Origin: Dictyostelium discoideum
Lineage: Eukaryota
Direction of reading: 5' to 3'
DNA length: 64,000 bases
NCBI GenBank assembly: GCA_000004695.1
Contig: CM000151.3
Location: forward strand, 192,001-256,000
The notes beneath the pieces are model-generated. The model saw only the letters and a program-made list of their open reading frames with translations, was not told the origin of the DNA and did not search any database. Below are positions 18,412 to 64,000 of this stretch, piece by piece (within the stretch, counting starts at the first letter, position 1; every line of letters starts with the position of its first letter). The translations under genes were made by a program, and so were the position numbers.

Positions 18412-18442
<31 letters not shown>

Positions 18443-19670: not shown

Positions 19671-19736
<66 letters not shown>

Positions 19737-19835: not shown

Positions 19836-19914
<79 letters not shown>

Positions 19915-24187: not shown

Positions 24188-24324
24188 TAATAATAATAAT
24201 AATTATAAAAATATATACATATTTATATATAAATATAATTAATTTATATTAATTTTTTTTTTATTATTATAATATATATAGTTTATTCTTTTCAACTTGT
24301 TTATCAATTAAATTAAATTTATTA

Positions 24325-24567: not shown

Positions 24568-24592
24568 ATAATTAAATAATTTAAAATTTCCA

Positions 24593-24628
<36 letters not shown>

Positions 24629-24837
24629 AGTAATAACAACATATAAATATATATATACAAATCTTTTTTCAATCAAAAAAAAAAAAAATAATAAAAAATA
24701 ATTAGTGATACTATTAGTATATTATCATTAAATATTTAAAAAATAAAAAATATTTTTAATTAAAAATTACTTTGGGTTATTCTTTTTTTTCTTTTTTTTT
24801 TTTTTTTTTTTAAAATTTAAAAAATTATTTTAACTTT

Positions 24838-26448
24838 TTATTTAACTTTATTAGTTCTTTTTGTAACAGTTGATTTTTTAGTAGTTTCATTATCTTCATC
24901 AGATTCATCAGATTCTTCAGATTCAATAGTTGGTTTATCTTGAATTGAAACAGATTCTTTAGTGACTGAAGTATTGGTGGTGGTAGTTGAGGTTGAATTA
25001 TTATCATCATCAGATTTAACTTTTTTTGATGATGGTTTCTTTGAACGAGTGAAACAAAATACAATTGGTAAAAGTAAAGAAGAGAAACCAACTAAATAAA
25101 GTAATGGATTTTGATTTGCTTCAGATTGGAAGAGAGTTAAATAGAATTTAATAGTTTCAAAGATATCACCTTGAGATGGGTCGAGTTTTTTGGCATCTTC
25201 AGCGTTTTTGGCTGCTTGTCTTTCCTTTTGAATTGTATGTTTCTCTTTCCAATTCTCTTGTAATAATTGTTGAGCTTCTTCTTGAGAATGAGTGATAATG
25301 AAATTATCAAAGAGAATATCACGAGTATTTGACAAAACTTCAATACCGACTGCAATGATTGGCTCTACGATATATGGATTCTCAACGTTGAAATAGGATG
25401 GATTTGCAATTTGTCTTGGTTTCCATTCACCCTTGTACAATGGGTTTGCTACCATTGGTGCGGACCATTTACCCTTGTATAATGGGTTGGCGATGGTTGG
25501 GATGACCCACTCACCGCATTGGCCAGAGGCGCATTTTGGATTCTCAATTGATGGTGCTTCCCACTCGCCATCGTCTTCCTCATTCCATTCTGGTGGCTGT
25601 GTTTCTGATGGGTCGGAGATTAAGAATGGCTCGTTGTCTAACCAATCGGATGGTTTGACAGCTTGTGGATCGTTGATACGTAATGGTTGGTCTTCGTCCC
25701 AGTCGTCTGGTTTGGTGGCGCCTGGTTCGGGGATTTCAGCATCGTCGACCCAGTCGGATGGCTTGGAGTCGGTTGGGTCGTCAATCTCCTTTGGTGGGTT
25801 GAAGGCTGGTGTGAACGAGTCGTGGAATGAGCCGTCCAAGACTGACTCGTCGTCGACCTTGATGGTGAAGGTGTTGTCTGGTCTGATGATCAAGGTGTAG
25901 ATATGCGACACTCTGTCTTTTCTAACCGATGGTTTTGCAGTGATCAATTTCTCTTCGTGTACATTTGTGATTGGGTTACGATGACGAACGATGAAATGAA
26001 TTCTGTCATTGCTTCCGCAAACGTCGGCGCCAAACATGATGCTGTATGGGGTGTTTGAGTCGACAGTTTCCACATTGAAATCTTCACGATCTGTGTACAA
26101 TTTAATGTAACCACCTGAACATGTTACACCCTCTTGGAATTGTAACTCATATTGAACTATTAATTCTTTATTGGTGTTATCAATTGCGTGACTTAATTGA
26201 TAGGTGATTGCATATCTTTTACCTGCTTGGGTTAATACTAAACCATTATCATTCTCATCGATTGGATCATTGGCTGCTTTAAATCCAATAACTCCACTAT
26301 ATTCTTGATTACTTGATTTAATCCATTTTGATGAACTTTTACCTAAATCTTGAAAATCTTCAAAAAATAATGTATCTTTACTTGGATTAAATGAAACACA
26401 AACTCCAATTATAATTGATAAAATTAATAATAAAATTAATTTATTCAT
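24838..26448 (-). CDS. cnxA: Calnexin, 536 aa, single exon
   Basis: The protein has a signal peptide, a lectin domain, and a P-domain with the repeated motifs KPSDWVDDAEIPEPGATKPDDWDEDQP, KPSDWLDNEPFLISDP and PPEWNEEDDGEWEAPSIENPKCASGQCGEWVIPTIANPLYKGKWSAPMVANPLYKGEW. It then has a TM helix LLYLVGFSSLLLPIVFCF and an acidic cytoplasmic tail, the hallmark calnexin/calreticulin architecture. The coding region is noticeably GC-richer than its neighbours. Confidence 0.95.
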   Translation of the reverse strand: MNKLILLLILSIIIGVCVSFNPSKDTLFFEDFQDLGKSSSKWIKSSNQEYSGVIGFKAANDPIDENDNGLVLTQAGKRYAITYQLSHAIDNTNKELIVQYELQFQEGVTCSGGYIKLYTDREDFNVETVDSNTPYSIMFGADVCGSNDRIHFIVRHRNPITNVHEEKLITAKPSVRKDRVSHIYTLIIRPDNTFTIKVDDESVLDGSFHDSFTPAFNPPKEIDDPTDSKPSDWVDDAEIPEPGATKPDDWDEDQPLRINDPQAVKPSDWLDNEPFLISDPSETQPPEWNEEDDGEWEAPSIENPKCASGQCGEWVIPTIANPLYKGKWSAPMVANPLYKGEWKPRQIANPSYFNVENPYIVEPIIAVGIEVLSNTRDILFDNFIITHSQEEAQQLLQENWKEKHTIQKERQAAKNAEDAKKLDPSQGDIFETIKFYLTLFQSEANQNPLLYLVGFSSLLLPIVFCFTRSKKPSSKKVKSDDDNNSTSTTTTNTSVTKESVSIQDKPTIESEESDESDEDNETTKKSTVTKRTNKVK

Positions 26449-26491
26449 TTTAAATATATATATATAAAAAAAAAAATTTTTTTATGAATTC

Positions 26492-26531
<40 letters not shown>

Positions 26532-26642
26532 TAATTTAGATTTTCATAAAAAAAAAAAAAAAAAATTTTAAAAAAATAAAAAAAAAAAATAAAAACAAAA
26601 AAAAATAAAATTTTAGGAAAGCGTTATCATTTAATGTGGTTA

Positions 26643-26680
<38 letters not shown>

Positions 26681-27293
26681 TTGTTTGAGTCAATTGATGT
26701 TTTTTTTTTTTTCTTAAAAACATTTGGATTCATTCTTGATTACATTTAAAAAAATCTAAATTTAGAAATAAAATTTTTAAAAAAATAATATTTAAAAATA
26801 TTAATAACAATAAAAATAATTTTATTTTATTTTGTTTTTTTTAAATAATTTTAAGTTTTAATTTATACTTAATATTTTATTATAATTAAATAAAATATTA
26901 ATATGTCATTGGTTTCAACGTGTTTTGGTTGCATCCGCACCTTTTTTTCTTTTTTTTTTTAATTTTTATTTTAATTTTTTAATTTTTTTTTTTTTTTTTT
27001 TTTTAATTTTTTTTTTTTAATTTTTTTTTTTTTTCTGTTCATAAAATTAAATTTAATTTTTCCAATGTTGTTGAAAAAAAAATAAAAAAAAAAAAAAATA
27101 AAACAAATAAAACAAATAAAACAAATAAAACAACAAAAAAAATTCAAACAAATATTTTACATTTATATATTATAATATATATATATATATTTGTAGATTA
27201 AAAAAAATTAAAATAAAAAATAAAGAAATAAAAATAAAATAATTTCATTATTAAATAAGGAAAGAGTGAGAGGAGATAGGTAGATGATCGAAA

Positions 27294-30200
27294 ATGGAGA
27301 AGAATAAATCAGCTCTATTATCATTTCTAGAGATGGATCTTAGAAATATCTCATCAGAAGCAAGAAATAAATTATTAAATATTAAAGAAGCAAGTGAAAG
27401 AGGTATTTTATATATTAAATATCTTCAAGAACAATCAGCAACTCCTGAAATATTATTACAAAGTAATTTTTTACCACCATTATTATTATTAGTATTAGTA
27501 TTGTTTTTAAATCATGTTAACTAATATTTCCAAAAAATATAAAAAAAATAAAAATTAAAAAAAAAACTTGTTAATTACAGATTTAAAATCAAAATCTGAT
27601 GAAATCTTAAAACCATTTTTAATGGCATTAGAATCAAAGAATCAAAAAATGATTTCATTAGCAATTGGTTCAGTTTTAAAATTAATTTCACATAGTGCAA
27701 TCTCAAATGTATGTAGTTTTATATATATATATATATATATACATATAATGTATATGCATATGTATTTATAAATATTATTAACATATATATATATATTTTT
27801 AAATTTTATATATATAGAGTTCAATACCTTCAATTTTAAGTAAAATGCAATTATTAATTGATGTTGGATCAGATGAATCAATTCAATTAAAAGTTTTACA
27901 AGGATTATTAGTATTGATAACTACAGTACCAGATATTCATGATGAAGAGTTATCACAATTATTGGTATTATGTTTTAGATTACATGGTAGTAAGAATACA
28001 TCAATTCAAAGTACATCATCTGCAACATTACCACAAATCATTAGAATCATTTTCGATAGAGTTTCTGTTGAAATGAATACTGCAAATAAGGAAATACTAT
28101 CATCACCTGTAACTACAAAATTAATAAATTCAAAATCTTCTGATAATATAACTTTAAGTAATAATAATAATCAAGATGATTCATCATCTTCATCTTTATC
28201 AACTACTTCAGATTCAACTACAACTACAAAAAATGATGATAATACAGGTACTACTACACCAACAACAACAACAACAGAAAATACAGATACTAAAACTACA
28301 ACAACAGTAACAGAAACTACAGATACTAAAACAACAACAGCAACAGATAATCAATCACCACAATTAAAATCATCACCATCAAATACAAATGTAGTTCAAC
28401 AACATCAACAACATAATAAAAATAAATCATGGTCAAATTTAAAACCATCAGCAAAAGATGCATATTTATTATTACAAGATTTATGTTATATTACAGGTAG
28501 TGATTCACCAGAATGGTTACCACATACGACAACCATTTCAAGAGCATCAGGTTTAGATTTCATTGAAATGATACTTTCAGTTCATTATGATATTTTTTTT
28601 AAGGTGAATAATAATCAATCAATCAATCAATCATTTATTTAAAATTAAAATTATTTATTATTAACACTTTTTTTTTTTTTTTATTTTATTATTTTTTTTT
28701 AGTTAGAAGAATTTAAAAATTTATTAAAAGATAAAATTTGTCCATTATTAATTAAAAATTTTAAATTTAAGATGGATTTTTATCATACAGTTAGATTGAT
28801 TAGAGTGATAACACAATTTATTAGTAAATTTAGTTCAATAATGGTTACAGAATCAGATGTATTATTGACAAAAACTATAAAGATGATGGATTTAGATCAA
28901 CCAATTTGGACACAAATTTTAGCATTGGAATCATTTAGAGTCTATTCAGAGGATCCAAATCTATTAAGATTATTCTTTAAAAACTATGATAAAGATAACA
29001 ACTCTGCAAAGATATTTGAAACAATGACGATTGCAATTGGAAAATATGTTCAAAATTTGTATGGATTGGATAGTAGTCATTTTGTGTTGGTTCAAACCTC
29101 AAAGAATCGTCTATTGGATTTATTATGGCAATCAGAGGTACCACTGATTAAAGAGAGTTATATAATCTCGGTTTGCACAGAATGTATCAATGGTATTGTT
29201 AATGCAGTCTCAAAAATCAATAATCCCGATAATAGTGCACAACAATATTCAGACTCTTTGGAGATATTCACTCAAATGGCAAATTCATGTTGGGTATCAA
29301 TACTTGGTGGTATCTCAATGTTATTAGGTAAAACCAATGACGAAGCTTTAATTCAAATGGTTTTAAAATCATTACAATCATTTACAAATACATGTGGTGA
29401 TTTACATTTATCTGCACCAAGAGATGCTTTATTAACTTGTCTTTGTAAAACTACAACTTTACCATCATTTGAATTATTAAATTCAAATTTAAATTTAAAT
29501 GCGACAACAACAACAACGACAACAACAAATACGAATACTATAAATAATATAAATAATATAAATAATATAAATAATACGAATAATACGAATAATTCGAATA
29601 ATATAAATAATACAAATATAAATACGAATAATATAAATAATAGCGAACAACAACAACAACAACAACAACAACAAATACAATCACCAATATCATCGACATC
29701 AACATCATCAAATATAATATCATCACAACAATCAACACCATCAAATTCATTAACACCACAACAATTGTCACAAAATAATAAAGACGGTCAAATTTCAATA
29801 AATACTATGGAAGAGAAATTATCAAATTTTTATCCAACCACTAAAAATATATTATCAGTGAAAATTTTATTTAATATAGCTCATTGTATGGGTTCATTAT
29901 TGGATGAATCTTGGATACTGGTTTTAGAAACATTAGAAACTTGGAATAGATTTTTAGAGAGTTTTTTAAAGAAAAAAGAGAATTCAAATAATACACAAAC
30001 AACAACAGGTACAGGTAATACAATAAATGGTAATAATAATAATAATAGTGGTGGTAATAAAAGTGGTGATAATATAATATTACCAAATCCATCAAGTTTA
30101 TCAATTGCAAATAATAATAATATTAATAATAATAATGAAAATACATCATCACCAAAAGAAACATCATCACCACGTACAATTGGATCAAGTGAAGTACCAA

Positions 30201-49164: not shown

Positions 49165-51803
49165 ATGATATCAATGGACTCAACCCCAACATTGAATTTT
49201 GAAACATCAGGTAAATATTATTATTTATTATTATTATTTATTATTTATTATTTATTATTTATTATTTATTATTTAAAATAGTAATAACAAAACAATAATA
49301 ATAGTGATAATAAAAAAAAAAAAAATAAAAAAAAATAAAAAAAAATAAAAAAAAAATAATCTTTCGTTTCGTTTTTTTTTTTTTTTTTTTTTTTTTTTTG
49401 GTTGATTAAGTGAAAAAATAACAATAATAAAAAAATAAAAAAAATAAAAAATAAATAAATTAAATTATAAATTAAATTATTAATTAAAAAAATTTTTTTT
49501 TTTTTTTTTTTATTATATTAAAAAAAATAATAATAATAATAAAAAAAAAAGATAATCTGGATGGATTACCGGATGGATCAAATGCATTTAAAATAAATAT
49601 AGATGATTTGGAATTTGGACAAGAAATTGGTAAAGGTGCATATGGTAAAATTTTTAAAGGTGAATATTTTGGAACACCAGTTGCAATTAAAGAGATATCA
49701 TTACAACCAAACGATGTGAAATATAAAGATTTAACCAAATTTATACAGAGAGAAGTAGCAATGTTAAGATTTAGTCATCCAAATTTAGTTCAATTCATTG
49801 GAGTATCGGAAAGAGGATCCAGTCTATACATTGTTACAGAGTTTGTACAGGGTGGTGATTTAGCTTATTATTTATTTAGAAATAAATTTGATGACACTCC
49901 AGAACAGTATATACACAGAAAAGTGAATGTCGGAAGTAGCTCAACACCCGACCTATCGGACCCGACCGTTCACAACGGCGAGAAGTTGGTGCAGTTGGCA
50001 TGGCCGTTGCGTATAAAGATAGCCTATGACGTTGCCTGCGCAATGGCGTATCTCCACTCGAGGAATGTGATACACCGTGATTTGAAATCCACAAATTTAT
50101 TAGTTGGCGACAATTGGAGAATCAAAGTTTGTGATATGGGATTCGCCAGAACTGCACAGGTCGGCGGAGGGTCAAGAGCAAAGCGAACAATGACCATCTG
50201 CGGAACCACAAATTGCATGGCGCCAGAGGTCGTGCTCGGCCAAGATTATAATGAGGCGTGCGATGTCTTCTCCTATGGTATTGTGCTATCGGAGATTATC
50301 ACTCGTATGGATACAACAAATAATCTTAGACCTTCGTCTTTAAAGTACGGTTTGGATGTCGATGTCTTATTACCATTGGTTCCAAAAGATTGTCCACCAC
50401 CATTTTTAAAATTGGTTCTAGATTGCACTGAATATGATCCAGACAATAGACCTACCTTTAAAGAAATCACAGAACGTTTAAAAAGTTTAACTAAAAAATT
50501 ATCAACACCTCACATTTTACCACCTTTAAGAGTTTTAGCACAATCACCATTAACATCACCAATTCAATCACCAATTTCAACTAAAAATCAATTTAATCCA
50601 AATTTATTTAAATCAATTGTACATAATAATCATAATCATAGTAGTAGTAGTAATAATAGTAGCGGATATAATAATAATAGTAATCATAATATAAATATAA
50701 CAGTAAATAGCATAAATATAAATAGTAGTAATATAAATAATAATAATAATAATAATAATATAAATAATAATAATAATAATAATAATAATATTAGTTTTTC
50801 AGGAAGACAAGAAGAGTTAATGTCACCAATATCAATGGGAGATGAAAGTGATTTAGATTCCGATGATGAGGATGATTCTTATACTTCTTCAGCTTCTTCA
50901 AGTAGATGTAATTCAAGAAACGGTAAAATTATAAATGGAGGAAAACAAATGGGTTATATAATAAAACATCATTATAGTAGTGATTTGGAATCATCGCCTA
51001 ATGGTAATAATATTAATAACAACAACAATAACAATAATAACAACAACAACAACAACAACAATAATAATAATAATAATAATAATAGCGGCAATAATGGAAT
51101 TTGTATAAATAGTTTAAGTTTAGGAGTATCGTCATCACCAATTCAAATTGGATTATCATCAAAATCACCAACACCACCATCAATGTCACCACCAACTTCT
51201 GTAAAATCTTATCATCCAAATAATAATAATAATAATATCAATATCAACAACACCAACACCAACATCAACAATAATAAAATTTCATCATCACCACCAGTTA
51301 AAAATTCACCAAAATCAAATAGATTTTCAAATGGATCATTAAAACAACAATTTCAACAATATCAACAACAACAACAACAATTATTTTTAAATATTAATGA
51401 AGATGATAAAGAATTGGAGGAATTATCAAAATCAATTGATGATACTTTTAGATTACATTTTTCACCTTTAAATATTTCACCAACTCAAAATAATAATAAC
51501 AATAATAACAATAGCAATAATAACAATGGTAATGTTAATCATAATCATCATCATTTAAATCAACATAGTCATATTAATGGTCATTTAATATCACCAACAA
51601 TTATATCTTCATCATCAACAACTTCTTCATCAACTTCAACACCTTCTTTAGTTAGTTTAACTTCATCTAGGGATCACCATCATCATCACATATCTGTAAC
51701 CTCTTCTCCAACTAATATCAAACCATTATCTTCTTCAATTGCCTCAAATTCTTCAGTCTTCACTCCGTTAGGTAGTGGATTAACAAGAACTGTACAAAGT
51801 TAA
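49165..51803 (+). CDS. Protein kinase, TKL-like (tyrosine-kinase-like Ser/Thr family), with a long N/S/H-rich C-terminal tail; 2 exons (49165-49210, 49550-51803)
   Basis: Exon 1 reads MISMDSTPTLNFETS and ends at g|gtaaat. Exon 2 begins after aaaag and joins in phase. Kinase motifs include GKGAYGKIF, VAIKE, HRDLKSTNLLV, DMGFAR and CGTTNCMAPEV. The tail has poly-N, poly-H and S/T runs. The gene ends at TAA 51801-51803. Confidence 0.85.
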
Positions 51804-52298: not shown

Positions 52299-52384
52299 TG
52301 AACCGATCACAATGATCATGAATTGATTTTTTTATTTTTTTTTATTTTTTTTATTTTTTTTTTTTTGAAAAAGCTAAAAATATC
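52299..52384. promoter_or_regulatory. Conserved upstream cassette of paralog A: GAACCGATCACAATGATCA ... GAAAAAGCTAAAAATATC(T)n
   Basis: The two blocks lie about 215 and 130 bp upstream of ATG 52515. The same blocks sit at the same spacing upstream of paralogs B and C. Confidence 0.5.
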
Positions 52385-52470
52385 TTTTTTTTTTTTTTTT
52401 TAAGTAAATAATAAATTTATTTATTTTTTTTATTATGATGGTCAAAAAAAAAAAAAAAAAACAATTGACA

Positions 52471-52505
<35 letters not shown>

Positions 52506-52514
52506 ATAATAAAA

Positions 52515-55500
52515 ATGAAAATAAAATTTATAAATTATTTATTATTATTTTTTATTATTTTTTTAAATTATAATGGATTTGTAAAATCAGATTGTTATCA
52601 AGAACTCGATTTGGTTTTATCTAATTCTTGTAGAAATGGCCCATCAAAATTAGTTATTCATGAAAGTATTTATTCTTTTGAAAGTATTGAATTGACTCCA
52701 TTTGTTCAACCAAAATTACTAAATTATTATTCTTGGGATTTACAAGATGGAATTAATTATTTCATAAGTTACAGATACAAGAATTGTAGTAATATAATTT
52801 CTAAACCATTTGCTTCAAAAGGAATGTATTATAAACTTTTAGCGGAACCATTATGTTTAAATACATATATTCCAGTTAGAGTTTATAATTGGGGTGCAGG
52901 TGGTATAGAATATAATTTTTATAGTGTTCCATCAACGATTTGGGTTAATTCACAAAATGGTTTATGTAGTTTCCAATCACCAATTTCTCCACAAAGTTAC
53001 ACAAAAGGTGTATTAAATGATGGTGCACTCAAATTCGTTGGACCAACATGTGGTTTTAAAAATGGTACGATTACAATTGATTTAACCAAAGGTTATTCAA
53101 ATTATCATTTATTCCTTCAATCAGATTACCTTTTTGATAATGAAATTCAACCATCTTCAGAAGGTTTTTACAATGGATTGGAATCTGAAAATTACTCCCT
53201 TTTCGTTGATTCTGAACAGTGTGCTACTGAAAGAATTGAAATTTACATGAAGGATGTTTTCGCTCCATTGGAAATTGATTTTGAGAATGTTCCAGACTTA
53301 TTCCATAATTCAACAATTTCACTATCATTATCAAGTGGTAATAATGGAATTTTAAATAACACAAATATAAATGCTTTTGTAATACAATCAGAACGTTTAC
53401 TTACAGATTGGAACCATGTCCAAACCCAAATTACTTCAAATACTTATTATGGGTACGCTTATAATAAAGACTTTTCAACGGAAGCAGGTCAGACAAAATG
53501 TGTATATTCTGAAACACTTTTATTTGATAATTATTCCCCAAATTTCAATTTCACAATTTCAAAAAGTGAAAGTTGTTTAGAAAATGTTTCAATTACATTC
53601 TATCCATTACCAAATCAAAATATTAAAGTTTATGATTATAGCTCAGAGTCTGGTATTCCATTCTCAATGAAGGATAACGTTTTATCAGTTGAAAATAATT
53701 TAAATTTATGGATTTTTGATACCAATCAAAATTATGGTATTGTTCATTCAACTGTTTTTGATATACCATCTTATAAAATTATTGAAACTTCAAATGGAAT
53801 TGGATGTTGGAAAACTTATAATATTACAATTGTAAATTATGAAAATTATAAAAATCTAAGAATTCATTTTTATAATGAAAATAGTGAATTTAATTTTTAT
53901 CCAGTAGAAGGTGTATTTATAAATGTACCTGCATTGTATTACTATGTTACTTATAATGCTGGTGATTGTGAAACTGAATCATACTTTGTAATTGATAAAC
54001 TTGATAGAAATACTCCAATGGATAATGTAGTTTTGGAATTCAACACATTGGAAATTGGTAATTGTACACATGAAACTTCATTCATGGTGACTGTGAAATC
54101 AGTATTCGGTAGCTATTCAAAAACTATGCAAACATTCTATGATAAAGAATTTACTATATTCCTTCCAAATTGTTCATGTCAGATTAATGGCATTTACGTA
54201 GCACCCCGCTTAATTGATGGTGATTCACTTATTTATGAATTATTAACAGATCCAAATTGTAATTCTACTGATACTTTAATTAGATTTACTTCTCCTTCCC
54301 AAGATTATTCAATATCATCTGTATATCAAAATGGTGTTCAATTGCAATATTATAACAATTTAAATGGTTATTATATTAGTTCAGGTGAAAATAATATTAC
54401 AGTTAATTATGAAGGTGATCAATATTGTTATAGAACTGAAACAATAACTATTCAATCAGTTTATGAAGTACCATTGGTCCAAATTACACCAGTTTCAGAT
54501 TGTAGAAATCCAAATGGAAAAATTGAAATTTCAAATTTCCAAATTTTCTATAACTTAGAGCTTGTATTTAATTCAAATAGTAAACCAATTAATCAAGGCT
54601 TTATTGAGAATCTTGCATCCGGTACATATACAATTAATTATTACAGCAATCAAACATGTATAAATTCTATCACTGTTTATGTACCATCTTCAGAAAATGT
54701 AGCAGAAATTACAACATCAGTAATTAGCAATCCAACTTGTGATAATGGTCCTTTCTCTGATGGTATGATCAGAGTAGCTCTTAAATATGAAGGTAATCAA
54801 ATTAATAATTTCACAATCCAAAATCAAGATGCAGAATTTACCTACCTTAATGATGGTGTTTACCCAATAGCAGGTGTTGGTGTAAATAGTTTAACAATTT
54901 CATATCTTTCTTGTATATGGAAAAGAGATATTACAACAGTACTCAATAAGCCAAGCTTTACTCTGGAAAAAGTTTTTAATGATACTTGTGATCTACAAAG
55001 TGTTTATAAATTAGTATCAAGTAATCCAAATATTGAAATCGATTATATTGATTCATCAAATGGCTTTTCTTACCTAAATAACTATTATCTAGTATTTCAA
55101 AATAGTGGCGATTTTGGTTATTATGTGGCTTGGAATTCACGTTGCTATGAATATTACACTCAACAAATTATAATGGATAATTATGATAGGGATAGTAATG
55201 TTAAATATATAGATTATGAAATTGTAAAACCAGATAATTGTAATTCATTAAAAATCGATTTAATCATTACAAATATGAACAAATTCATTAGTTTAACCAT
55301 TGAAAATAAACTTCCAACACCAATTAATTCGACCCATTCAATTTTCAAAAATTTACCACCATCAAAAAGTTATGACATTTTATACACATTATTAAATGGT
55401 TGTGTCGCGTATCAAACTGTTGGTATAGATGAATTCAAATCTGGTTTTACTAAAGAAACAATAGATATCATTAAAACAAGTGATATTTGTTACTCTGGTA

Positions 55501-56096
55501 AAGCTTCAATACAATTATCAAATTTGGATTTTGATAATTATTATTATTATATTAAAAATTCAAATAGTTTAATGGGAGTTACTGATTCATACGATTCAAT
55601 TCAACCACAGCAAAGTGGTAATATTAATGGTACAATTTTACTTTCAAATTATAATCCTGGTAGTTATAAAATTTATCGTGGTTGTAAATCAATGGCAAAC
55701 TGTTATTTAGAAACAAATGTTGTTATTGAAAGTGAAGATCCAATAATTGAATCAATTTCAGTTACTGATTCATATGATAAATTAAATAATGGCACTGTTG
55801 AAATTAAATTGAATTATAATTCACCATATCCAATTAATTTTAAAATCATTGGTACTCAATTATCAAATCAAAATGGTAAATTTGGAAATTTAACACCAAA
55901 AACATACGAAGTTCAAGTTACATTAACTGATAGAATGTGTCCAGTCACTTTATCAAAATCATTTACAATTAATTTAAAAACATCACCACCAACACCATCA
56001 CCACAAGATCCATCTGATGAACTTTCAACATCCTCATTTGTTCAAGTAAATCTTTTATTCTTATCAATCTTAATTTTCACTATTTTTATTTTTTAA
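52515..56096 (+). CDS. Large secreted surface protein of about 1193 aa, Cys-patterned, N-glycosylation-rich, putatively GPI-anchored; family unassigned; paralog A
   Basis: The gene is a single exon. A signal peptide MKIKFINYLLLFFIIFLNYNGFVKS opens it. More than 60 NxS/T sequons are present. A Cys-NG-x-I module recurs, for example GPTCGFKNGTITIDLT, VSDCRNPNGKIEISNF, SNPTCDNGPFSDGMIRV and SDICYSGKASIQLSNL. The C-terminus SPPTPSPQDPSDELSTSS plus the hydrophobic tail FVQVNLLFLSILIFTIFIF looks like a GPI-attachment signal. Confidence 0.8.
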   Translation: MKIKFINYLLLFFIIFLNYNGFVKSDCYQELDLVLSNSCRNGPSKLVIHESIYSFESIELTPFVQPKLLNYYSWDLQDGINYFISYRYKNCSNIISKPFASKGMYYKLLAEPLCLNTYIPVRVYNWGAGGIEYNFYSVPSTIWVNSQNGLCSFQSPISPQSYTKGVLNDGALKFVGPTCGFKNGTITIDLTKGYSNYHLFLQSDYLFDNEIQPSSEGFYNGLESENYSLFVDSEQCATERIEIYMKDVFAPLEIDFENVPDLFHNSTISLSLSSGNNGILNNTNINAFVIQSERLLTDWNHVQTQITSNTYYGYAYNKDFSTEAGQTKCVYSETLLFDNYSPNFNFTISKSESCLENVSITFYPLPNQNIKVYDYSSESGIPFSMKDNVLSVENNLNLWIFDTNQNYGIVHSTVFDIPSYKIIETSNGIGCWKTYNITIVNYENYKNLRIHFYNENSEFNFYPVEGVFINVPALYYYVTYNAGDCETESYFVIDKLDRNTPMDNVVLEFNTLEIGNCTHETSFMVTVKSVFGSYSKTMQTFYDKEFTIFLPNCSCQINGIYVAPRLIDGDSLIYELLTDPNCNSTDTLIRFTSPSQDYSISSVYQNGVQLQYYNNLNGYYISSGENNITVNYEGDQYCYRTETITIQSVYEVPLVQITPVSDCRNPNGKIEISNFQIFYNLELVFNSNSKPINQGFIENLASGTYTINYYSNQTCINSITVYVPSSENVAEITTSVISNPTCDNGPFSDGMIRVALKYEGNQINNFTIQNQDAEFTYLNDGVYPIAGVGVNSLTISYLSCIWKRDITTVLNKPSFTLEKVFNDTCDLQSVYKLVSSNPNIEIDYIDSSNGFSYLNNYYLVFQNSGDFGYYVAWNSRCYEYYTQQIIMDNYDRDSNVKYIDYEIVKPDNCNSLKIDLIITNMNKFISLTIENKLPTPINSTHSIFKNLPPSKSYDILYTLLNGCVAYQTVGIDEFKSGFTKETIDIIKTSDICYSGKASIQLSNLDFDNYYYYIKNSNSLMGVTDSYDSIQPQQSGNINGTILLSNYNPGSYKIYRGCKSMANCYLETNVVIESEDPIIESISVTDSYDKLNNGTVEIKLNYNSPYPINFKIIGTQLSNQNGKFGNLTPKTYEVQVTLTDRMCPVTLSKSFTINLKTSPPTPSPQDPSDELSTSSFVQVNLLFLSILIFTIFIF

Positions 56097-56199
56097 ACTT
56101 AGAAAAAATATAAAATACAAATAAAAAATAATGATTCAAGTGTTTGCAAGGAGTTTTCTTATTTTTTTTCTTTGTAGTTTATTCTGTGATTATGTATGG

Positions 56200-56233
<34 letters not shown>

Positions 56234-56362
56234 AGGATGATTTCCTTTTTTTTTTTTTTTTTTTTTGTAAATTGGTATTTTATTTATAAAATAGAATTTT
56301 TTATTATGATAATCAATTAAATTATTTTATGGGCAAGAAAAACAAATTAAAAAAAATTCACT

Positions 56363-56425
56363 GAACCGATCACAATGATCACAACCGTTTTTTTTTTTTT
56401 TTTTTTTCGAAAAGCTAAAAATATC
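56363..56425. promoter_or_regulatory. Conserved upstream cassette of paralog B
   Basis: CTGAACCGATCACAATGATCA ... CGAAAAGCTAAAAATATC(T)n, with the same spacing as in paralog A. Confidence 0.5.
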
Positions 56426-56589
56426 TTTTTTTTTTTTAATTTAATTTAATTTTATTTTATTTTATTTTATTTTATTTTTTTTTTTTTTTCAAACCAATCA
56501 AAAAAAAAAAAAAAAAAAAAAAAAACCTTAAAATAATTTTTTTTTTTTTTTTATAAAAAATTTTTAATAATAATATTAATAATAAAAAG

Positions 56590-59500
56590 GAAAATAAAAT
56601 TTATAAATTATTAATTATTATTTTTTATTATTTTTTTAAATAAAAATAATTTTGTAAAATCAGATTGTGATCAAGAACTCGATTTGGTATTATATAATTC
56701 TTGTGGAAATAGCCCATCAAAATTAGTTATTCATGAAAATATTTATTCTTTTGAAAGTATTGAATTGACTCCATTTGTTCAACCAAAATTACTAAATTAT
56801 TATTCTTGGGATTTACAAGATGGAATTAATTATTTCATAAGTTACAGATACAAGAATTGTAGTAATATAATTTCTAAACCATTTGCTTCAAAAGGAATGT
56901 ATTATAAACTTTTAGCGGAACCATTATGTTTAAATACATATACTCCAATTATAGTTTATAATTGGGCTGCAGATGCTTCACCCTATAGTTTTTATAGTGT
57001 TCCATCAACAATTTGGGTTTATTCACAAAATGGTAATTGTAATTTCCAATCACCAATTTCTCCACAAAGCTACACAAAAGGTGTATTAAATGATGGTGCA
57101 CTCAAATTCGTTGGACCAACATGTGGTTTTAAAAATGGTACGATTACAATTGATTTAACCAAAGGTTATTCAAATTATCATTTATTCCTTCAATCAGATT
57201 ACCTTTTTGATAATGAAATTCAACCATCTTCAGAAGGTTTTTACAATGGATTGGAATCTGAAAATTACTTCCTTTTCGTTGATTCTGAACAGTGTGCTAC
57301 TGAAAGAATTAAAATTTACTTGAAAGATGTTTTCGCTCCATTGGAAATTGATTTTGAGAATGTTCCAGATTTATTCCATAATTCAACAATTTCATTATCA
57401 TTATCAAGTGGTAATAATGGAATTTTAAATAACACAAATTCAAATGCATTTGTTGGAAATACACAGCGTTTACTTGCAGATTGGAACCATGCACAAACCC
57501 CAATTATATCAAGAACTGTTTATGGGTATACTTATAATAAAGACTTTTCAACAGAGGTTGGCCAGTTACAATGTAATTTTTTCGAAACACTTTCATTTGA
57601 TAATTATTCCCCAAATTTCAATTTCACAATTTCAAAAAGTGAAAGTTGTTTAGAAAATGTTTCAATTACATTCTATCCATTACCAAATCAAAATATTAAA
57701 GTTTATGATTATAGCTCAGAGTCTGGTATTCCATTCTCAATGAAGGATAACGTTTTATCAGTTAATAATAATTTAAATTTATGGATTTTTGATACCAATC
57801 AAGGGTATGGTATTGTTCATTCAACTGTTTTTGATATACCATCTTACAAAATTATCGAAACTTCAAATGGAATTGGATGTTGGAAAACTTATAATATTAC
57901 TATTGTAAATTATGAAAATTATAAAAATCTAAGAATTCATTCATATAATGAAAATAGTGAATTTAATTTTTATCCAGTAGAAGGTGTATTTATAAATGTA
58001 CCTGCATTGTATTACTATGTTACTTATAATGCTGGTGATTGTGAAACTGAATCATTCTTTGTAATCGATAAACTTGATATAAATACTCCAATGGATGGTG
58101 TGACTGTTGAATACACTACATTGAAAGTTGGTAATTGTACACATGAAACTTCATTCATGGTGACTGTGAAATCAGTATTCGGTAGCTATTCAAAAACTAT
58201 GCAAACATTCTATGATAAAGAATTTACTATATTCCTTCCAAATTGTTCATGTCAGATTAATGGCATTTACGAAGCACCCGGCTTAATTGATGGTGATTCA
58301 CTTATTTATGAACTTTTAACAGATCCAAATTGTAATTCCACTGGCACTTTAATTAGATTTACTTCTCCTTCCCAAGATTATTCAATATCATCTGTATATC
58401 AAAATGGTGTTCAATTGCAATATTATAACAATTTAAATGGTTATTATATTAGTTCAGGTGAAAATAATATTACAGTTAATTATGAAGGTGATCAATATTG
58501 TTATAGAACTGAAACAATAACTATTCAATCAGTTTATGAAGTACCATTGGTCCAAATTACACCAGTTTCAGATTGTAGAAATCCAAATGGAAAAATTGAA
58601 ATTTCAAATTTCCAAATTTTCTATAACTTAGAGCTTGTATTTAATTCAAATAGTAAACCAATTAATCAAGGCTTTATTGAGAATCTTGCATCCGGTACAT
58701 ATACAATTAATTATTACAGCAATCAAACATGTATAAATTCTATCACTGTTTATGTACCATCTTCAGAAAATGTAGCAGAAATTACAACATCAGTAATTAG
58801 CAATCCAACTTGTGATAATGGTCCTTTCTCTGATGGTATGATCAGAGTAGCTCTTAAATATGAAGGTAATCAAATTAATAATTTCACAATCCAAAATCAA
58901 GATGCAGAATTTACCTACCTTAATGATGGTGTTTACCCAATAGCAGGTGTTGGTGTAAATAGTTTAACAATTTCATATCTTTCTTGTATATGGAAAAGAG
59001 ATATTACAACAGTACTCAATAAGCCAAGCTTTACTCTTGAAAAAGTTTTTAATGATACTTGTTCACTACCAAATGTTTATAAATTAGTATCAAGTAATCC
59101 AAATATTGAAATCGATTATATTGATTCACCAAATAACTTTTTTTATCAAAATAACTATTATCTAGTATTTCAAAATGTTGGTAATTCTAGTTATCAAGTG
59201 GGCTGGAATTCACGTTGTGAAGAACATTACTATCAACAAATAATAATGGATAATTATGATAAAAATAGTAATGTTAAATATATAGATTATGAAATTGTAA
59301 AATCAGATAATTGTAACTCATTAAAAATTGATTTAATCATTACAAATATGAACAAATTCGTTAGTTTAAATATTGAAAATAAACTTCCAACACCAATTAA
59401 TTCGACCCATTCAATTTTCAAAAATTTACCACCATCAAAAAGTTATGACATTTTATACACATTACTAAATGGTTGTGCAGGGTATCAAACTGTAGGTGAA

Positions 59501-60181
59501 GATGAACTCAAATCTGGTTTTACTAAAGAAACAATGGATATCATAAAAATAAATGATCTTTGTTACTCTGGTAAAGCTTCAATACAATTATCAAATTTGG
59601 ATTTTGATAATTATTATTATTATATTAAAAATTCAAATAGTTTAATGGGAGTTTCTGATTCATTTGACCCAATTCAACCACAACAAATTAGTAGTAATGG
59701 TACTATTTTACTTTCAAATTATAATCCTGGTAGTTATAAAATTTATCGTGGTTGTAAGTCAATGGCAAACTGTTATTTAGAAACAAATGTTGTTATTGAA
59801 AGTGAAGATCCAATAATTGAATCAATTTCAGTTACTGATTCATATGATAAATTAAATAATGGTACTGTTGAAATTAAATTAAATTATAATTCATCAAATC
59901 CAATTAATTTTAAAATCATTGGTACTCAATTATCAAATCAAAATGGTAAATTTGGAAATTTAACACCAAAAACATACGAAGTTCAAGTTACATTAACTGA
60001 TAGAATGTGTCCAATCACTCTATCAAAATCATTTACAATTAATTTAAAAACATCACCAACACCATCACCAACCCCATCACCACAAGATCCATCTGATGAA
60101 CTTTCAACATCATCATTTGTTCAAGTTAATCTATTATTCTTATCAATCTTAATTTTCACTATTTTTATTTTTTTAATTTAA
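56590..60181 (+). CDS. Paralog B of the surface-protein family; a 1165-aa body ORF about 93-95% identical to A, but the start codon is lost and the signal peptide has a stop, so it may be a very recent pseudogene
   Basis: At the position homologous to ATG of A, B reads AGG (aaaaaggaaaataaaattt versus aaaaatgaaaataaaattt). Codon 9, TTA in A, is TAA in B (aattattaattatta). Downstream of that the frame is open to 60181, with the same C-terminal GPI-like tail. Confidence 0.6.
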
Positions 60182-60336
60182 AATAATTAAAAATTCCAAA
60201 GTTTTTTCAATATTTATATATATACTTTTCCCTTTAATGTTTATTTTTAAAAAATTGTTTTAGTGGAGGAAATGGGAAAGGATTTTAAAAAAGTATATTT
60301 TTTTTTATAATTGACTGGAAGATGATAAAGTCTTTT

Positions 60337-60372
<36 letters not shown>

Positions 60373-60590
60373 TAATTGTTCGTTTTATTTGTTTATATAT
60401 TTACATGTTTATTTATTAATTTTTTTTTTTTTTGTGTAAATTACAAAGTATCCCAAGAAATCAAAGTAAAAAAATCAAATCATTGAAACCCTATTCGTTA
60501 TGAAATGATTGCAATCTCCTTTTTTTTTTAAAATAAAAAAAAAAATTAAAAAAATTAAAAAAAATTCAAATAACCAATCTGATTGATTTC

Positions 60591-60648
60591 TTTACCGATC
60601 CCCCAAAAAATTAATTTTTTTTTTAATTTTTCAAAAACTAAAAATATC
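60591..60648. promoter_or_regulatory. Conserved upstream cassette of paralog C
   Basis: TTACCGATCCCCCAAAAAA ... CAAAAACTAAAAATATC(T)n lies about 115-170 bp upstream of ATG 60762. Confidence 0.45.
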
Positions 60649-60761
60649 TTTTTTTTTTATTTTTAATTTTTTTTTTTTTTTTTTATTTTAACCTTTTTTT
60701 TTTTTTTTTTTTTTTTTATTTTAACAAAAAAAAATAATATTAAATCTAAAACAATAAGGAA

Positions 60762-63700
60762 ATGAAATTTATAAAATATTTATTAATTTTATTTTTAATA
60801 TTAAAAATTAATTATTTTGTAGAATCAGGAGTAGATTGTCAAAAAAATACAGAGTATTTCGTTGAAAATTCATGTGGCAAAAATCCATCAAAATTAAACA
60901 TCAACACTGATATTTACTATTTTGAAAGTATTGGAATAACACCATATTCCCCACCTGTTTATAATGAATCTACAACTAATTACTTTTGGTATTTGAAGGA
61001 TGGTATTGAATATACATTTAGTTATAGATACAAAGGTTGTCAAAATATTAAATCACATTCAATTGTTTCACAAGGAATGTATTACCAACTTTTATCACAA
61101 CCATTGTGTCCAAATACCTATTTCAATTATACAATTTATAATTCAGGAGAGTTTGGTGGAAATACAAATTATTACTCTACCCCACAAAATATTATAAGTT
61201 CAAATTATAATGGTAGTTGTACTATTAATATTTTAATTACACCACTTAGTAATTCCAAAGGTGCATTCCAAAGCAGTGCTGCTAAATACACCTATCCAAC
61301 TTGTGGTTTTAATAATGGTACGATTTCAGTTGATTTAACAAAAGGTTATTCAAATTGTCACTTATTCAGCCAATTTGACACGAGTTTTCTATATGAAATT
61401 GAACCATCATCGCCATGTTTTTACAGTGGGTTGGAGTCAAATTATTATTACCTTTTCGTTGATTCTAAAGAATGTGCTACTGAAAGATTATCAATTCAAT
61501 TATTCAATGTTTTCACTCCATTGGAAATTACTTTTGAAAATGTTCCAGATTATAATCAAAATTCAATAGTATCATTATCATTATCAAGTGGTGACAATGG
61601 AATTTTAAATAAAACTAATTCATTTGCAACTGTGGGTGGCACTGGACCTGATCCATTAAGTACTTGGAGCCATAAAGAAACTAAAATTACTTCAACCACA
61701 CAATTTGGTTACTTTTATAATAAAGACTTTTCAACAGATCCATTAAAAGTTATATGTTCTTTTAATGATGGTTTTGAACCGCAAAAATTTAATCCAAATT
61801 TTAATTTCACAGTTACAAAAAGTGATACTTGTTTAGAAAATGTAACTATTACATTTTATCCATTACCAAGTCAAACATTTGTTGTTCATGATTATATTTT
61901 AGGAAATATATTACCATTGACAAATAATGTTCTATCGGTTCAATATAATAAATTTTTACATATTTCAGAGATTTCAAGTAATTCAGAAAGATATTATTCA
62001 ACAGCTTTTTATGCTCCTATTTATAGAGTTGTTGAAACTTCAAATGGAATTGGTTGTTGGAAAACCTATAATATTACAATTGGTGAATATCAAATTTATT
62101 CAAATCTTACAATGAAAGTATATGATGGAGATGAATATGAATATATTTTTTATCCAATTGAAGGAGTTTTCGTTAATGTACCTGCAAATTATTTTTATAT
62201 CCATTATAAAGTTAAAGATTGTGAAGTTGAATCAATAATTATGATTGATAAATATGAAGAAATTACTCCAATGGATGATGTAAAAATGGATATCAGTATA
62301 TATGAACTTGGTAATTGTACACATGAAACTTCAATTTTAGTAAATATCGATACAGTTTTTGGTAACTTTTCTAAAGTTTATTCATCATTTTCAAATGGTT
62401 ATTTCTCTTTTTACCTTCCAAATTGTTCCTGTAATATTGGTTTCTACTATTCTATTCCACCATTAATCGATAGTGAAACATTTTCTTATGGTTTTATCAG
62501 TGATCTAGATTGTAATTCCACTGGTACTGTTATTCAATTATTAGGTTCAAATGGTAATACTATTCAAGAAGTTTATTCAAATGGTATTAAATTAATAGTA
62601 AATAATGACGTTGATACTGATTTTGCATATAATATTGGGCCTGGTGAAAATAATGTTACAATTAAATATTCAAATACAAAAGGAACTTGTTACAAATCTC
62701 AAATGATTAACATACAATCACCTTATGAAGTACCATTAGTTGAAGTCACACCAGTTATAGATTGTGATAGTTCTGATGGTAAAATTTCAATTTCAAATTA
62801 TATGAACTTCTATTCATTGGATATTATTATTGATTCATCCACTATACCAATTAATTCAGGTTTAGTTAGTAATCTTCCAACTGGTACTTACACAATTGTT
62901 TATGGAAACAGTGGATCTTGTGCAAATTCTATCGATGTTTATGTACCATCTTCAGAACAGTATGTAGAAATTACAACATCTGTAATTTCCCATCCAACTT
63001 GTGGTGAACAATCATTGAATGGTGATGGTAAAGTCAATGTAACTTTAAAGGTTTTAGGAATTAAAAAAAATACATTCTATATTCAAAATCAAAATCAAAT
63101 ATCATCTCTAACATTCTCAGATGGTGGTGTTTATATTGCTGCTGCTCCAGGTTTAAATACTTTATCAATATCCTATGGTGGTTGTATTTGGAATAGAGAT
63201 GTTAATACAACAATTTCCAAACCAACATTCTCATTTGAAAAGATTTACAATGACACTTGTTTATCATCAGTATATTATAAATTAATAAATAATAATACAA
63301 ATATAGCAATTAATTCCATCACTTCACCTTATACCTTATATAGTTACCAAAATGAATACTACACTCAAATGGCCACAAATTTAATCTATCCATACACTGT
63401 CACATGGAATACCTATTGCACAGAAACATTTTACCAAGAATTTACTTTTGACACTCCTTTTAATTATTATTCAAATTATATCCAATATGAAATTGTAAAA
63501 GCTGATAATTGTAATTCATTCAAAATTGATATCATCATTAAAAATATGAATACTTTTCAAAAGGTAACCCTTTCAAGTAAATATCCAACACCAATTAATT
63601 CGACTCATGCAATTTTTAAAAATTTACCACCATCTATTTCTTATGATATTTCATTCACATTATTTGATGGTTGCTCTGGTACTGAAATGGTTGGTTATCA

Positions 63701-64000
63701 ACAACTTTCAAATGGTAATACTAAAGAGACAATCGATATCATCAAGGTGAACGACATTTGTAACTCTGGTAAAGGTTCTATCCAATTATCAAATATGGAT
63801 ACCTCCAATCATTATTACTATGTTAAAACATTTTCAGATTATTACGTTTACACAAGTTACCCAATTCAACCAACTACTAATGATAATGGTACAATTATTA
63901 GTCTACTTTCAAATTTACCAGTTGGTAGTTACAATATAACTAGAAATTGTAAATCAATAACAAACTGTTATATAGAAACAAAGGTTGTTATTGAAAATAA
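60762..64000 (+). CDS. Paralog C of the surface-protein family, divergent (about 50% aa identity to A); partial, running off the window end
   Basis: Translation from ATG 60762 stays open to 64000. It begins MKFIKYLLILFLILKINYFVESGVDCQKNTEYFVENSCGKNPSKLNINTDIYYFESIGITPY... and shows the same module order as A, for example PTCGFNNGTISVDLTKGYSNCHLF, SNGIGCWKTYNITI, ELGNCTHETS, LPNCSCNIG, VIDCDSSDGKISISNY and SHPTCGEQSLNGDGKVNV. Confidence 0.75.
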   Translation, partial: MKFIKYLLILFLILKINYFVESGVDCQKNTEYFVENSCGKNPSKLNINTDIYYFESIGITPYSPPVYNESTTNYFWYLKDGIEYTFSYRYKGCQNIKSHSIVSQGMYYQLLSQPLCPNTYFNYTIYNSGEFGGNTNYYSTPQNIISSNYNGSCTINILITPLSNSKGAFQSSAAKYTYPTCGFNNGTISVDLTKGYSNCHLFSQFDTSFLYEIEPSSPCFYSGLESNYYYLFVDSKECATERLSIQLFNVFTPLEITFENVPDYNQNSIVSLSLSSGDNGILNKTNSFATVGGTGPDPLSTWSHKETKITSTTQFGYFYNKDFSTDPLKVICSFNDGFEPQKFNPNFNFTVTKSDTCLENVTITFYPLPSQTFVVHDYILGNILPLTNNVLSVQYNKFLHISEISSNSERYYSTAFYAPIYRVVETSNGIGCWKTYNITIGEYQIYSNLTMKVYDGDEYEYIFYPIEGVFVNVPANYFYIHYKVKDCEVESIIMIDKYEEITPMDDVKMDISIYELGNCTHETSILVNIDTVFGNFSKVYSSFSNGYFSFYLPNCSCNIGFYYSIPPLIDSETFSYGFISDLDCNSTGTVIQLLGSNGNTIQEVYSNGIKLIVNNDVDTDFAYNIGPGENNVTIKYSNTKGTCYKSQMINIQSPYEVPLVEVTPVIDCDSSDGKISISNYMNFYSLDIIIDSSTIPINSGLVSNLPTGTYTIVYGNSGSCANSIDVYVPSSEQYVEITTSVISHPTCGEQSLNGDGKVNVTLKVLGIKKNTFYIQNQNQISSLTFSDGGVYIAAAPGLNTLSISYGGCIWNRDVNTTISKPTFSFEKIYNDTCLSSVYYKLINNNTNIAINSITSPYTLYSYQNEYYTQMATNLIYPYTVTWNTYCTETFYQEFTFDTPFNYYSNYIQYEIVKADNCNSFKIDIIIKNMNTFQKVTLSSKYPTPINSTHAIFKNLPPSISYDISFTLFDGCSGTEMVGYQQLSNGNTKETIDIIKVNDICNSGKGSIQLSNMDTSNHYYYVKTFSDYYVYTSYPIQPTTNDNGTIISLLSNLPVGSYNITRNCKSITNCYIETKVVIEN

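Follow-up and report, generated by a model that had tools for sequence, protein, structure and literature searches.

The tgrB1 and tgrC1 genes of Dictyostelium discoideum exhibit extreme allelic polymorphism. For contact site A (csA, gp80), a C-terminal signal of 25 residues was shown to direct phospholipid anchoring (PMC2119896), and several highly similar genes encode the surface glycoprotein gp138 (Fang et al. 1993 and Aiba et al. 1997, as cited in PMC2443395 and PMC2119896). In bacteria, the glycosylated, SprB-like protein GhpA has a stem of 52 immunoglobulin (Ig)-like repeats with disulfides between neighbouring domains (bioRxiv 10.1101/2024.01.29.577165). Here we describe three tandem genes, called copies A, B and C, in a window of 64,000 nucleotides (nt) from chromosome 2 of D. 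discoideum AX4 (8.48-Mb contig; G+C 15-30%). The cluster is an uncharacterised set of tandem genes for Ig-like-repeat surface glycoproteins that evolve in concert, and its members differ from each of these systems in ways set out below.

Three tandem copies of two different ages

Copy A encodes a protein that matches DDB_G0271238 of D. discoideum AX4 with 100% identity; UniProt lists it as uncharacterised. Copy C corresponds to DDB_G0271234, named 'Protein dduB' in UniProt, and the other annotation of the family in AX4 reads 'hypothetical'. We take dduB to stand for 'dedifferentiation up-regulated', a name that presumably goes back to Katoh et al. 2004; the genes of A and C are not listed in the supplements of a 2020 eLife study of dedifferentiation. 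Searches of the literature for DDB_G0271238, DDB_G0271234, dduB and 'SprB repeat' together with Dictyostelium returned no papers.

A preliminary description of this DNA, made from its letters, had reported a tandem triplication of head-to-tail homologous units, and the gene coordinates confirm the three units and their places (Table 1). Between copies A and B, identity is 94.5-95% at the DNA level and 91-92% at the protein level, and their alignment contains 180 substituted positions and 18 gap columns. The duplicated unit that they share (52347-56121 versus 56388-60200, 93.2% identity by blastn) extends from ~170 nt 5' of the start codon to ~25 nt 3' of the stop codon. Copy C, in contrast, shares ~68% of its DNA sequence and 50-54% of its protein sequence with A and B. 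Given a protein identity to A of only 50-54%, the 'triplication' resolves into two events of very different age.

Differences between copies A and B are concentrated in islands kept by copy type

The differences between A and B are strongly clustered along the genes. Their longest identical tract measures 692 nt, compared with a mean of 111 nt and a maximum of 287 nt in 10,000 permutations (p < 1e-4), and the dispersion index of substitutions in 60-nt bins is 5.0 versus an expected 0.93. Divergence along the two copies is thus not uniform, and the three sharp patches that the preliminary description had picked out within otherwise near-identical genes are all present. The main patches lie at amino acids (aa) 118-160, 281-345 and 835-900, and smaller ones at aa 1-40, 495-520, 961-1000 and 1020-1040.

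For comparison we used three or four assemblies, which do not amount to a population sample. Copies A, B and C are all present in FIR (D. discoideum) and in FIY (D. cf. discoideum), the latter with additional family fragments downstream; FIZ (D. cf. discoideum) carries one A/B-type copy and one C, and D. citrinum one full copy and a decayed fragment. The A-B-C order, complete with A-type and B-type islands, recurs in the independent FIR and FIY assemblies. Within the patches, A/B divergence is high in AX4, FIR and FIY alike, and A of AX4 groups with A of FIR, as B of AX4 does with B of FIR. The patches are old paralogue-specific islands kept by copy type across strains rather than hypervariable sites; the term 'hypervariable' used in the preliminary description does not fit sequences whose A and B types are conserved between strains.

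Two further readings of the islands were considered and rejected. B-type islands do not represent a derived state: the two types show symmetric distances to FIZ and D. citrinum, and the 33 fixed A/B differences divide into 14 derived in B, 12 derived in A and 7 that are ambiguous. Nor are the islands hot spots of the whole family, as orthologues of C have no hot spots at the same positions.

Gene conversion outside the islands

Paralogues in a given genome lie nearer to one another than to the orthologous copies of other strains. The A/B distance in DNA is 0.050 within AX4, compared with 0.075 between the A copies and 0.063 between the B copies of AX4 and FIR; within FIY it is 0.070, versus 0.092-0.122 to any copy of another strain. 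Orthologue distances range overall from 0.063 to 0.102. Windows of 40 codons in which A and B of AX4 are identical carry 5-17 substitutions relative to the FIR copies.

This pattern reverses inside the islands. We counted informative four-taxon sites (quartet sites) as orthology : concerted : cross, and obtained for AX4 and FIR 59 : 4 : 1 in the islands and 17 : 56 : 1 elsewhere. The corresponding counts for AX4 and FIY are 22 : 19 : 5 and 6 : 123 : 1. Synonymous divergence (dS) between A and B shows the same partition, being 0.24 in the islands of AX4 versus 0.05 elsewhere (about five-fold) and 0.21 versus 0.13 in FIR, with an island value of 0.17 in FIY. Protein constraint cannot produce such a contrast at silent sites; most of A and B has therefore been homogenised by gene conversion, separately in each lineage, while the islands kept an older divergence. 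Gene conversion between A and B outside the islands, which the preliminary description had proposed, is thereby supported by the quartet sites, by the five-fold heterogeneity of dS and by paralogues that are closer than orthologues.

The same measurements provide relative dates and directions. Between AX4 and the single-copy FIZ, dS is 0.22-0.26, comparable to the A/B value of 0.21-0.24 in the islands, so that the A/B duplication is roughly as old as the split from FIZ. At aa 587-665, part of the 692-nt tract, A of AX4 departs from B of FIR at 8 and 5 sites, as opposed to 15 and 16 for A of FIR; this B-type sequence in A indicates that at least one conversion tract went from B to A. Between A and C, dS is 0.4-1.5 along the gene body and falls to 0.1-0.2 in the last ~150 codons (55650-56096; also between A and C of FIR), which indicates that the 3' end, with the final domain, stalk and predicted GPI signal (see below), was homogenised among all three genes.

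Copy B is disabled in AX4

Two lesions that the preliminary description had missed disrupt the 5' end of copy B in AX4. At 56588-56590, where the start codon ATG would stand, the sequence reads AGG, and a stop codon in the same frame, TAA, follows at 56612-56614 (codon 9), within the signal peptide. The B copies of FIR and FIY, like every other copy outside AX4, begin with an ATG and a signal peptide and keep their frame open throughout, so the AX4 lineage acquired the lesions recently. In UniParc only, an obsolete model of B (P0019) starts at an ATG at 56132 in spacer 1 and has two introns, one through a poly-T exon, on its way into the B frame (region 56132-56270). We rejected this upstream ATG as the true first exon of B in AX4 and regard it as a gene-finder work-around, since other strains have the normal ATG and signal peptide. 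That B is disabled in the laboratory strain AX4 and intact in wild strains is relevant to knockouts and to any interpretation of the cluster.

Selection on the cluster

Calnexin, encoded 26 kb upstream of the cluster (24838-26448, -), has between AX4 and FIR a dS of 0.117, a nonsynonymous divergence (dN) of 0.008 and a dN/dS ratio (omega) of 0.07. In the same comparison, copies A, B and C have dS of 0.11-0.12 and dN of 0.037-0.068, and none of the three shows an excess of between-strain silent polymorphism over the calnexin background. Their pairwise omega is 0.33-0.64 by the Nei-Gojobori method and 0.22-0.36 by maximum likelihood (ML); the two methods disagree for this AT-rich family and both values are therefore given, the ML estimates coming from our own GY94/F3x4 implementation, which reproduces the 0.07 of calnexin. 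Proteins of the cluster evolve 3-8 times faster than calnexin, and protein identity between AX4 and FIR is 85-93% for the family versus 97-99.5% for three other genes of the window.

Within the islands, Nei-Gojobori omega is 0.72-1.08 for A versus B, and between orthologues it is 0.88 for A-type and 0.31 for B-type islands (range 0.3-0.9). B-type islands have between strains a ratio of nonsynonymous to synonymous differences (pN/pS) of 0.17-0.7, indicating purifying selection; in the B-type island at aa 495-520 (21 codons) there are 0 synonymous and 2 nonsynonymous differences, and the ratio is undefined. The only island with pN/pS above 1 is aa 118-160 (1.6-2.5, not significant), where A of AX4 and A of FIR are separated by 13 nonsynonymous and 0 synonymous differences (P ~0.05 before correction for multiple tests).

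Site models fitted to the islands on the orthology tree prefer M2a to M1a, with 2.7% of sites at omega 6.6 (likelihood-ratio test, LRT, 11.1; p = 0.004; M0 omega 0.30). The converted remainder yields an LRT of 33.5, with 0.6% of sites at omega 21. As this signal is stronger in the converted remainder, which is what recombination violating the tree would yield, we rely on neither result. Sites in M2a classes with omega >= 1 make up 42% of the islands versus 28% of the rest, and the islands differ mainly by having more unconstrained sites.

Diversifying or allorecognition-type selection is not supported by these data; a few candidate sites are possible. The preliminary description had read the patches as the work of diversifying selection at an allorecognition-like locus. 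Patch dN/dS is ~1 or less, the range which that description had itself set against such selection, and only aa 118-160 exceeds 1, not significantly; between-strain dS of ~0.12 equals the 0.117 of calnexin, and IPT/TIG domains are absent from the family. Neither part of that reading is shown, and 'diversifying', like 'hypervariable', is partly contradicted.

Domain architecture of the predicted surface proteins

Copy A encodes a protein with 28 Cys and 20 N-glycosylation sequons, whose mature form would comprise ~1147 residues (~130 kDa before glycosylation, pI 4.5). The size of ~130 kDa, the acidic character and the 20 sequons hold for each of the three proteins. Its only hydrophobic segments are aa 3-23 and aa 1174-1193. 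The C-terminus reads ...KTSPPTPSPQDPSDELSTSS-FVQVNLLFLSILIFTIFIF, in which DELSTSS is followed by the 20-residue tail FVQVNLLFLSILIFTIFIF, and it is conserved in all three genes in every strain. A short Pro/Ser/Thr stalk, small residues that would suit an attachment site and a terminal hydrophobic tail together form the classical layout of a glycosylphosphatidylinositol (GPI) signal. Along with the signal peptide, this layout is consistent with A, B and C being predicted GPI-anchored surface glycoproteins, as the preliminary description had suggested.

The AlphaFold (AF2) model of A is all-beta, with a mean predicted local distance difference test score (pLDDT) of 71 and values of 75-89 in most domain cores. 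It resolves into ~14 beta-sandwich domains of 75-90 residues that resemble Ig or fibronectin type III folds. Each domain has a conserved Cys near its start and its end, and among 29 superfamily members Cys is invariant at 13 positions and nearly so at 7 more. This arrangement fits predicted disulfides that staple the domains, and the Cys pattern noted in the preliminary description proved to be conserved across the whole dictyostelid superfamily.

Placed on this model, island 1 falls in domain 2, which is of low confidence, and the small islands overlap dips of pLDDT at 498-501, 1018-1025 and 1032-1038. Together with the locations given for islands 2 and 4 in Table 1, these positions suggest that the unconverted parts correspond to two or three whole domains plus loops. 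We infer for A, B and C a role in adhesion or recognition at the cell surface; domains 2, 4 and 11 may give A and B different binding properties.

A dictyostelid family with SprB-type repeats

An exhaustive profile search retrieved 303 relatives. Full-length relatives of 1100-1400 residues were found in Tieghemostelium lacteum, D. purpureum and Polysphondylium violaceum, and in Synstelium polycarpum the architecture of the family lies inside far larger predicted proteins of 3222 and 5003 residues. Relatives occur throughout Dictyostelia. Many distant dictyostelid relatives (~1250-1320 residues) end in a ...[VI]F[TQ]GG[KR]..[LI]D[DEK]F tail instead of a GPI-type end, which suggests a transmembrane branch with a conserved cytoplasmic motif. 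In the dictyostelid assembly GCA_054859355.1, two members of this transmembrane type lie in tandem (1-2409 and 3001-6912 of the extracted locus) with 36% identity; tandem arrays recur in the superfamily.

The preliminary description had left the family unassigned, and our searches likewise found no Pfam domain and no characterised member. A Pfam scan of A, C and all 17 members gave nothing significant, only weak beta-sandwich hints (SdrD_B, Big_3). The IPT/TIG models of Tgr type (PF01833, PF24612) did not match any of the 17 members at E <= 10, no Pfam match to a sorting domain of the type IX secretion system (T9SS; Por_Secre_tail or CHU_C) was found at the C-terminus, and a sequence-based profile search of the PDB returned no match. 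The best PDB match by Foldseek, in several fragments, was GhpA of Aureispira, a 'grappling hook' protein (E = 6e-16).

The family profile produced hundreds of repeat-wise matches in giant Bacteroidota proteins that carry PF13573 SprB repeats and T9SS sorting domains, with up to 39 matching stretches per protein. Alignment of the family with one SprB-repeat protein by hhalign gave a probability of 87% (E = 3.7e-6, 324 columns) and superimposed the C..NG.I.I and G.Y...C motifs. An HMM (hidden Markov model) search with the repeated module, which the preliminary description had proposed, connected domains 9, 14 and 3 to bacterial SprB-type repeats: the single-module model of each of these domains matched between 10 and 224 bacterial repeats at 15-25 bits, compared with no more than 4 bits on reversed sequences. 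The model of domain 13 was marginal (3 bacterial repeats, top 15.4 bits), that of domain 10 failed against the bacterial repeats (top 7.3 bits), and the N-terminal domains at aa 26-170 had no bacterial match. Two larger, word-indexed homologue alignments added only two bacterial proteins with the same domains, a PF13573 protein of Psychroserpens sp. and an unnamed protein from ENA, and no dictyostelid relative. By these profile comparisons, the family shares its repeat type with SprB while standing outside that bacterial system.

The resemblance to SprB may reflect horizontal transfer, very old common ancestry or convergence. Bacteroidota are prey of amoebae. A bolder scenario is that the dictyostelid family, with its GPI-anchored and transmembrane forms, derives from a Bacteroidota array of SprB/GhpA type redeployed for eukaryotic recognition, and that selection shields two or three whole domains (2, 4 and 11) from homogenisation for the sake of binding specificities towards kin, mates or prey; we regard this combination as speculative and doubtful.

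Proposed history and alternative explanations

We consider it probable that the locus is a three-gene cluster of Ig-like-repeat surface proteins in which A and B have been converted around unconverted islands and B has been lost in AX4. On this account, C would have separated from the A/B lineage long ago, and A and B would stem from a later duplication that dates to around the time when the FIZ lineage, with its single copy, split off. Conversion between the paralogues would then have homogenised most of A and B repeatedly and independently in each lineage, and would also have homogenised the last ~150 codons of all three genes. The islands (domains 2, 4 and 11 plus two loops) would never have been overwritten in the three lineages that have both copies. 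The patchy near-identity would thus be a mosaic of young converted and old unconverted tracts, and B of AX4 would have been disabled recently by two point mutations at its 5' end.

Several points weigh against this account. The literature searched held no expression, localisation or binding data on A, B and C, and their function is entirely inferred. The GPI anchor is a prediction based solely on features of the sequence, and the AF2 model has a predicted template modelling score of 0.31, as expected for a flexible rod, and is reliable at the level of domain folds only. The Pfam SprB model (PF13573, 37 positions) matched none of 17 family members at E <= 10, and the lesions of B are known from a single reference assembly. 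The persistence of the islands could, moreover, result from a mechanical barrier, in that divergence suppresses recombination, rather than from selection for a difference between A and B.

Among other explanations, the one with the most in its favour views the cluster as a diversifying recognition or allorecognition locus, with the patches as hypervariable specificity determinants under positive or balancing selection. The 3-8 times faster evolution of the proteins (omega 0.22-0.36 by ML and 0.33-0.64 by Nei-Gojobori versus 0.07 for calnexin) would agree with it, as would the AX4-FIR protein identity of 85-93% versus 97-99.5% for three other genes of the window, the pN/pS of 1.6-2.5 at aa 118-160 with its 13 nonsynonymous and 0 synonymous differences, the preference for M2a over M1a in the islands (p = 0.004), and a TgrO1-like gene 4.4 kb downstream of C in FIR. 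Yet omega in the islands is 1 or less overall, purifying selection acts on the B-type islands, and each copy type has kept its own island sequences from strain to strain. Between-strain silent divergence of 0.11-0.12 matches the background of 0.117, the site-model signal is equal or stronger in the converted remainder, C orthologues lack hot spots at the same positions, and IPT/TIG domains are missing; we therefore hold this explanation to be unlikely. Still less can be said for a history without gene conversion, in which A and B have one uniform age and the patches mark low protein constraint. It would be in line with the larger share of unconstrained sites in the islands (42% versus 28%) and with the islands being the most divergent windows relative to FIZ and D. 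citrinum. Synonymous divergence in the islands is, however, also 2-5 times higher, A and B are closer than orthologues outside them, the quartet sites flip from 59:4 to 17:56, and a substitution-free tract of 692 nt is incompatible with a uniform age, all of which makes this history highly improbable.

The lesions of B invite the view that it is a silent donor cassette feeding an expressed A, as in pseudogene-templated antigenic variation: B of AX4, lacking a start codon, keeps an open frame of 1165 codons, and A of AX4 carries B-type sequence at aa 587-665. B is nevertheless intact in FIR and FIY, with start codon and signal peptide, and it is under purifying selection between strains (omega 0.23). 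Both observations argue that the lesions are recent in AX4 and not a designed silent state, and we judge the donor role very unlikely. That the near-identical repeat is an artefact of the reference assembly is scarcely credible. Near-identical 4-kb tandem repeats are hard to assemble, and chromosome 2 of AX3/AX4 has a known large duplication; the artefact is contradicted by the A-B-C order and island types in the independent FIR and FIY assemblies.

Conversion around persistent islands makes the cluster a clean, small case of concerted evolution: three lineages have left the same islands unconverted, and this points to domains 2, 4 and 11 as the places to seek functional differences between A and B. 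Structure and evolution are described here for the first time for a family of large dictyostelid surface proteins that had no annotation; neither the family nor its islands are described in the literature searched. SprB-type repeats and a GhpA-like fold in a eukaryote add a moderately interesting twist. No new allorecognition system is revealed on present evidence.

Layout of the locus and its surroundings

The coordinates of the genes, spacers, islands and other features are collected in Table 1.

Table 1. Features of the three-gene cluster, in positions of the window
Feature	Positions	Strand	Description
Copy A	52515-56096	+	Intact gene, 1193 codons; signal peptide, ~14 predicted beta-sandwich domains, Pro/Ser/Thr stalk, GPI-type tail
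Copy B	56588-60181	+	In AX4, AGG for ATG and TAA at codon 9, 1165 further codons open; intact in FIR and FIY
Copy C	60762-64000	+	1079 of 1201 codons inside the window; gene cut by the window end
Spacer 1 (A-B)	56097-56587	no strand	491 nt, rich in A/T homopolymers
Spacer 2 (B-C)	60182-60761	no strand	580 nt
5' flank of A within the duplicated unit	52347-52514	+	Common to 56388-56587 upstream of B (blastn)
Signal peptide of A (aa 1-24, MKIKFINYLLLFFIIFLNYNGFVK)	52515-52586	+	N-terminal hydrophobic segment; conserved in every copy from other strains
GPI-type C-terminal signal of A (predicted)	56025-56093	+	STSS small residues, then hydrophobic tail to the C-terminus; PTPSP stalk before
Longest A/B identical tract, recent gene-conversion tract	54273-54964 = 58346-59037	+	Exact match, 692 nt
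Island 1 (aa 118-160)	A 52866-52994; B 56939-57067	+	High A/B divergence in three strains, orthology kept
Island 2 (aa 281-345)	A 53355-53549; B 57428-57622	+	Most of beta-sandwich domain 4; pLDDT 80-89
Island 3 (aa 495-520)	A 53997-54074; B 58070-58147	+	Coincides with a pLDDT dip at 498-501
Island 4 (aa 805-900)	A 54927-55214; B 59000-59287	+	Domain 11
Island 5 (aa 1020-1040)	A 55572-55634; B ~59645-59707	+	Low-confidence loop

The spacers resemble each other little except for the 170-200 nt beside each start codon, and the stretches 56190-56560 and 60340-60740 consist mostly of T and A homopolymer runs of 20-40 nt. Directly upstream, A adjoins a protein kinase gene (Pkinase / PK_Tyr_Ser-Thr; 49608-51803, +), which contains a low-complexity repeat (50668-50794). 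Annotators of other assemblies seem to have joined this kinase and copy A in single products, 1979 and 1995 residues long. The genes upstream of the cluster are ordinary ones. Besides this kinase, they encode abcA7 (an ABC transporter), a Dor1-like protein, calnexin, Mon2 and an MMAA homologue, and further ones encode an FNIP-repeat protein, a BPI-like protein and a WD40 protein. A search for tRNA genes in the window found none.

FIY carries short, decayed family fragments on both strands downstream of its copy C (19857-20353 of the extracted locus), and in D. citrinum a degenerate fragment (8544-9423 of the extracted locus) lies upstream of the single copy. Such fragments point to gene birth and death at the locus. 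A gene with Ig_TgrO1 / TIG matches is found ~4.4 kb downstream of C in FIR (18010-20633 of the extracted locus, -), and its AX4 counterpart lies past the end of the window. FIR and FIW are both labelled D. discoideum and differ from AX4 by a calnexin dS of ~0.117 and by 2.7% mismatches over 7.6 kb (window 21854-29480), a deep split for a single species name.

Comparison with known systems

The bacterial SprB/GhpA proteins (PF13573; PDB entries 9flp, 9fly and 9flw) resemble the dictyostelid family in their Ig-like beta-sandwich repeats of ~75-85 residues, in the pattern 'C-x-x-NG-x-I-x-I ... G-x-Y ... C' and in being glycosylated. The dictyostelid proteins are, in contrast, eukaryotic, with a Sec-type signal peptide and a GPI-type tail in place of a T9SS sorting domain, and they have ~14 domains, whereas proteins of SprB/GhpA type have 50 or more.

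Within D. discoideum, TgrB1 and TgrC1 are likewise surface glycoproteins with multiple Ig-like domains, encoded by adjacent, fast-evolving paralogues. Unlike A, B and C, the Tgr proteins are transmembrane and contain IPT/TIG domains. The cluster also differs from tgrB1/C1 in that its between-strain silent divergence is at background and its islands keep to their copy type across strains.

The layout of A, B and C is also that of contact site A (gp80) and PsA: an extracellular domain lies between a signal peptide and a stalk rich in Pro, Thr and Ser, and a hydrophobic signal forms the C-terminus, so that a cytoplasmic tail is absent. The two sets of proteins are not similar in sequence; those described here are much larger, are built from a different type of domain, and have an anchor that is only predicted. 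The resemblance to gp138 is one of size only (~138 kDa versus ~130 kDa for mature A). We rejected the possibility that A, B and C are the cloned gp138 genes, as the 90%-identity clusters of A, C and DDB_G0271482 hold no entry named gp138; such clusters do include separate GenBank deposits, for example AAK58500 for calnexin.

As an instance of concerted evolution, the A/B pair has the features of other surface-protein and multigene families: paralogues closer than orthologues, long identical tracts, a mosaic of dS and islands resistant to conversion. Concerted evolution at this cluster is nothing unusual in kind, and it is fairly ordinary for clusters of surface-protein genes.

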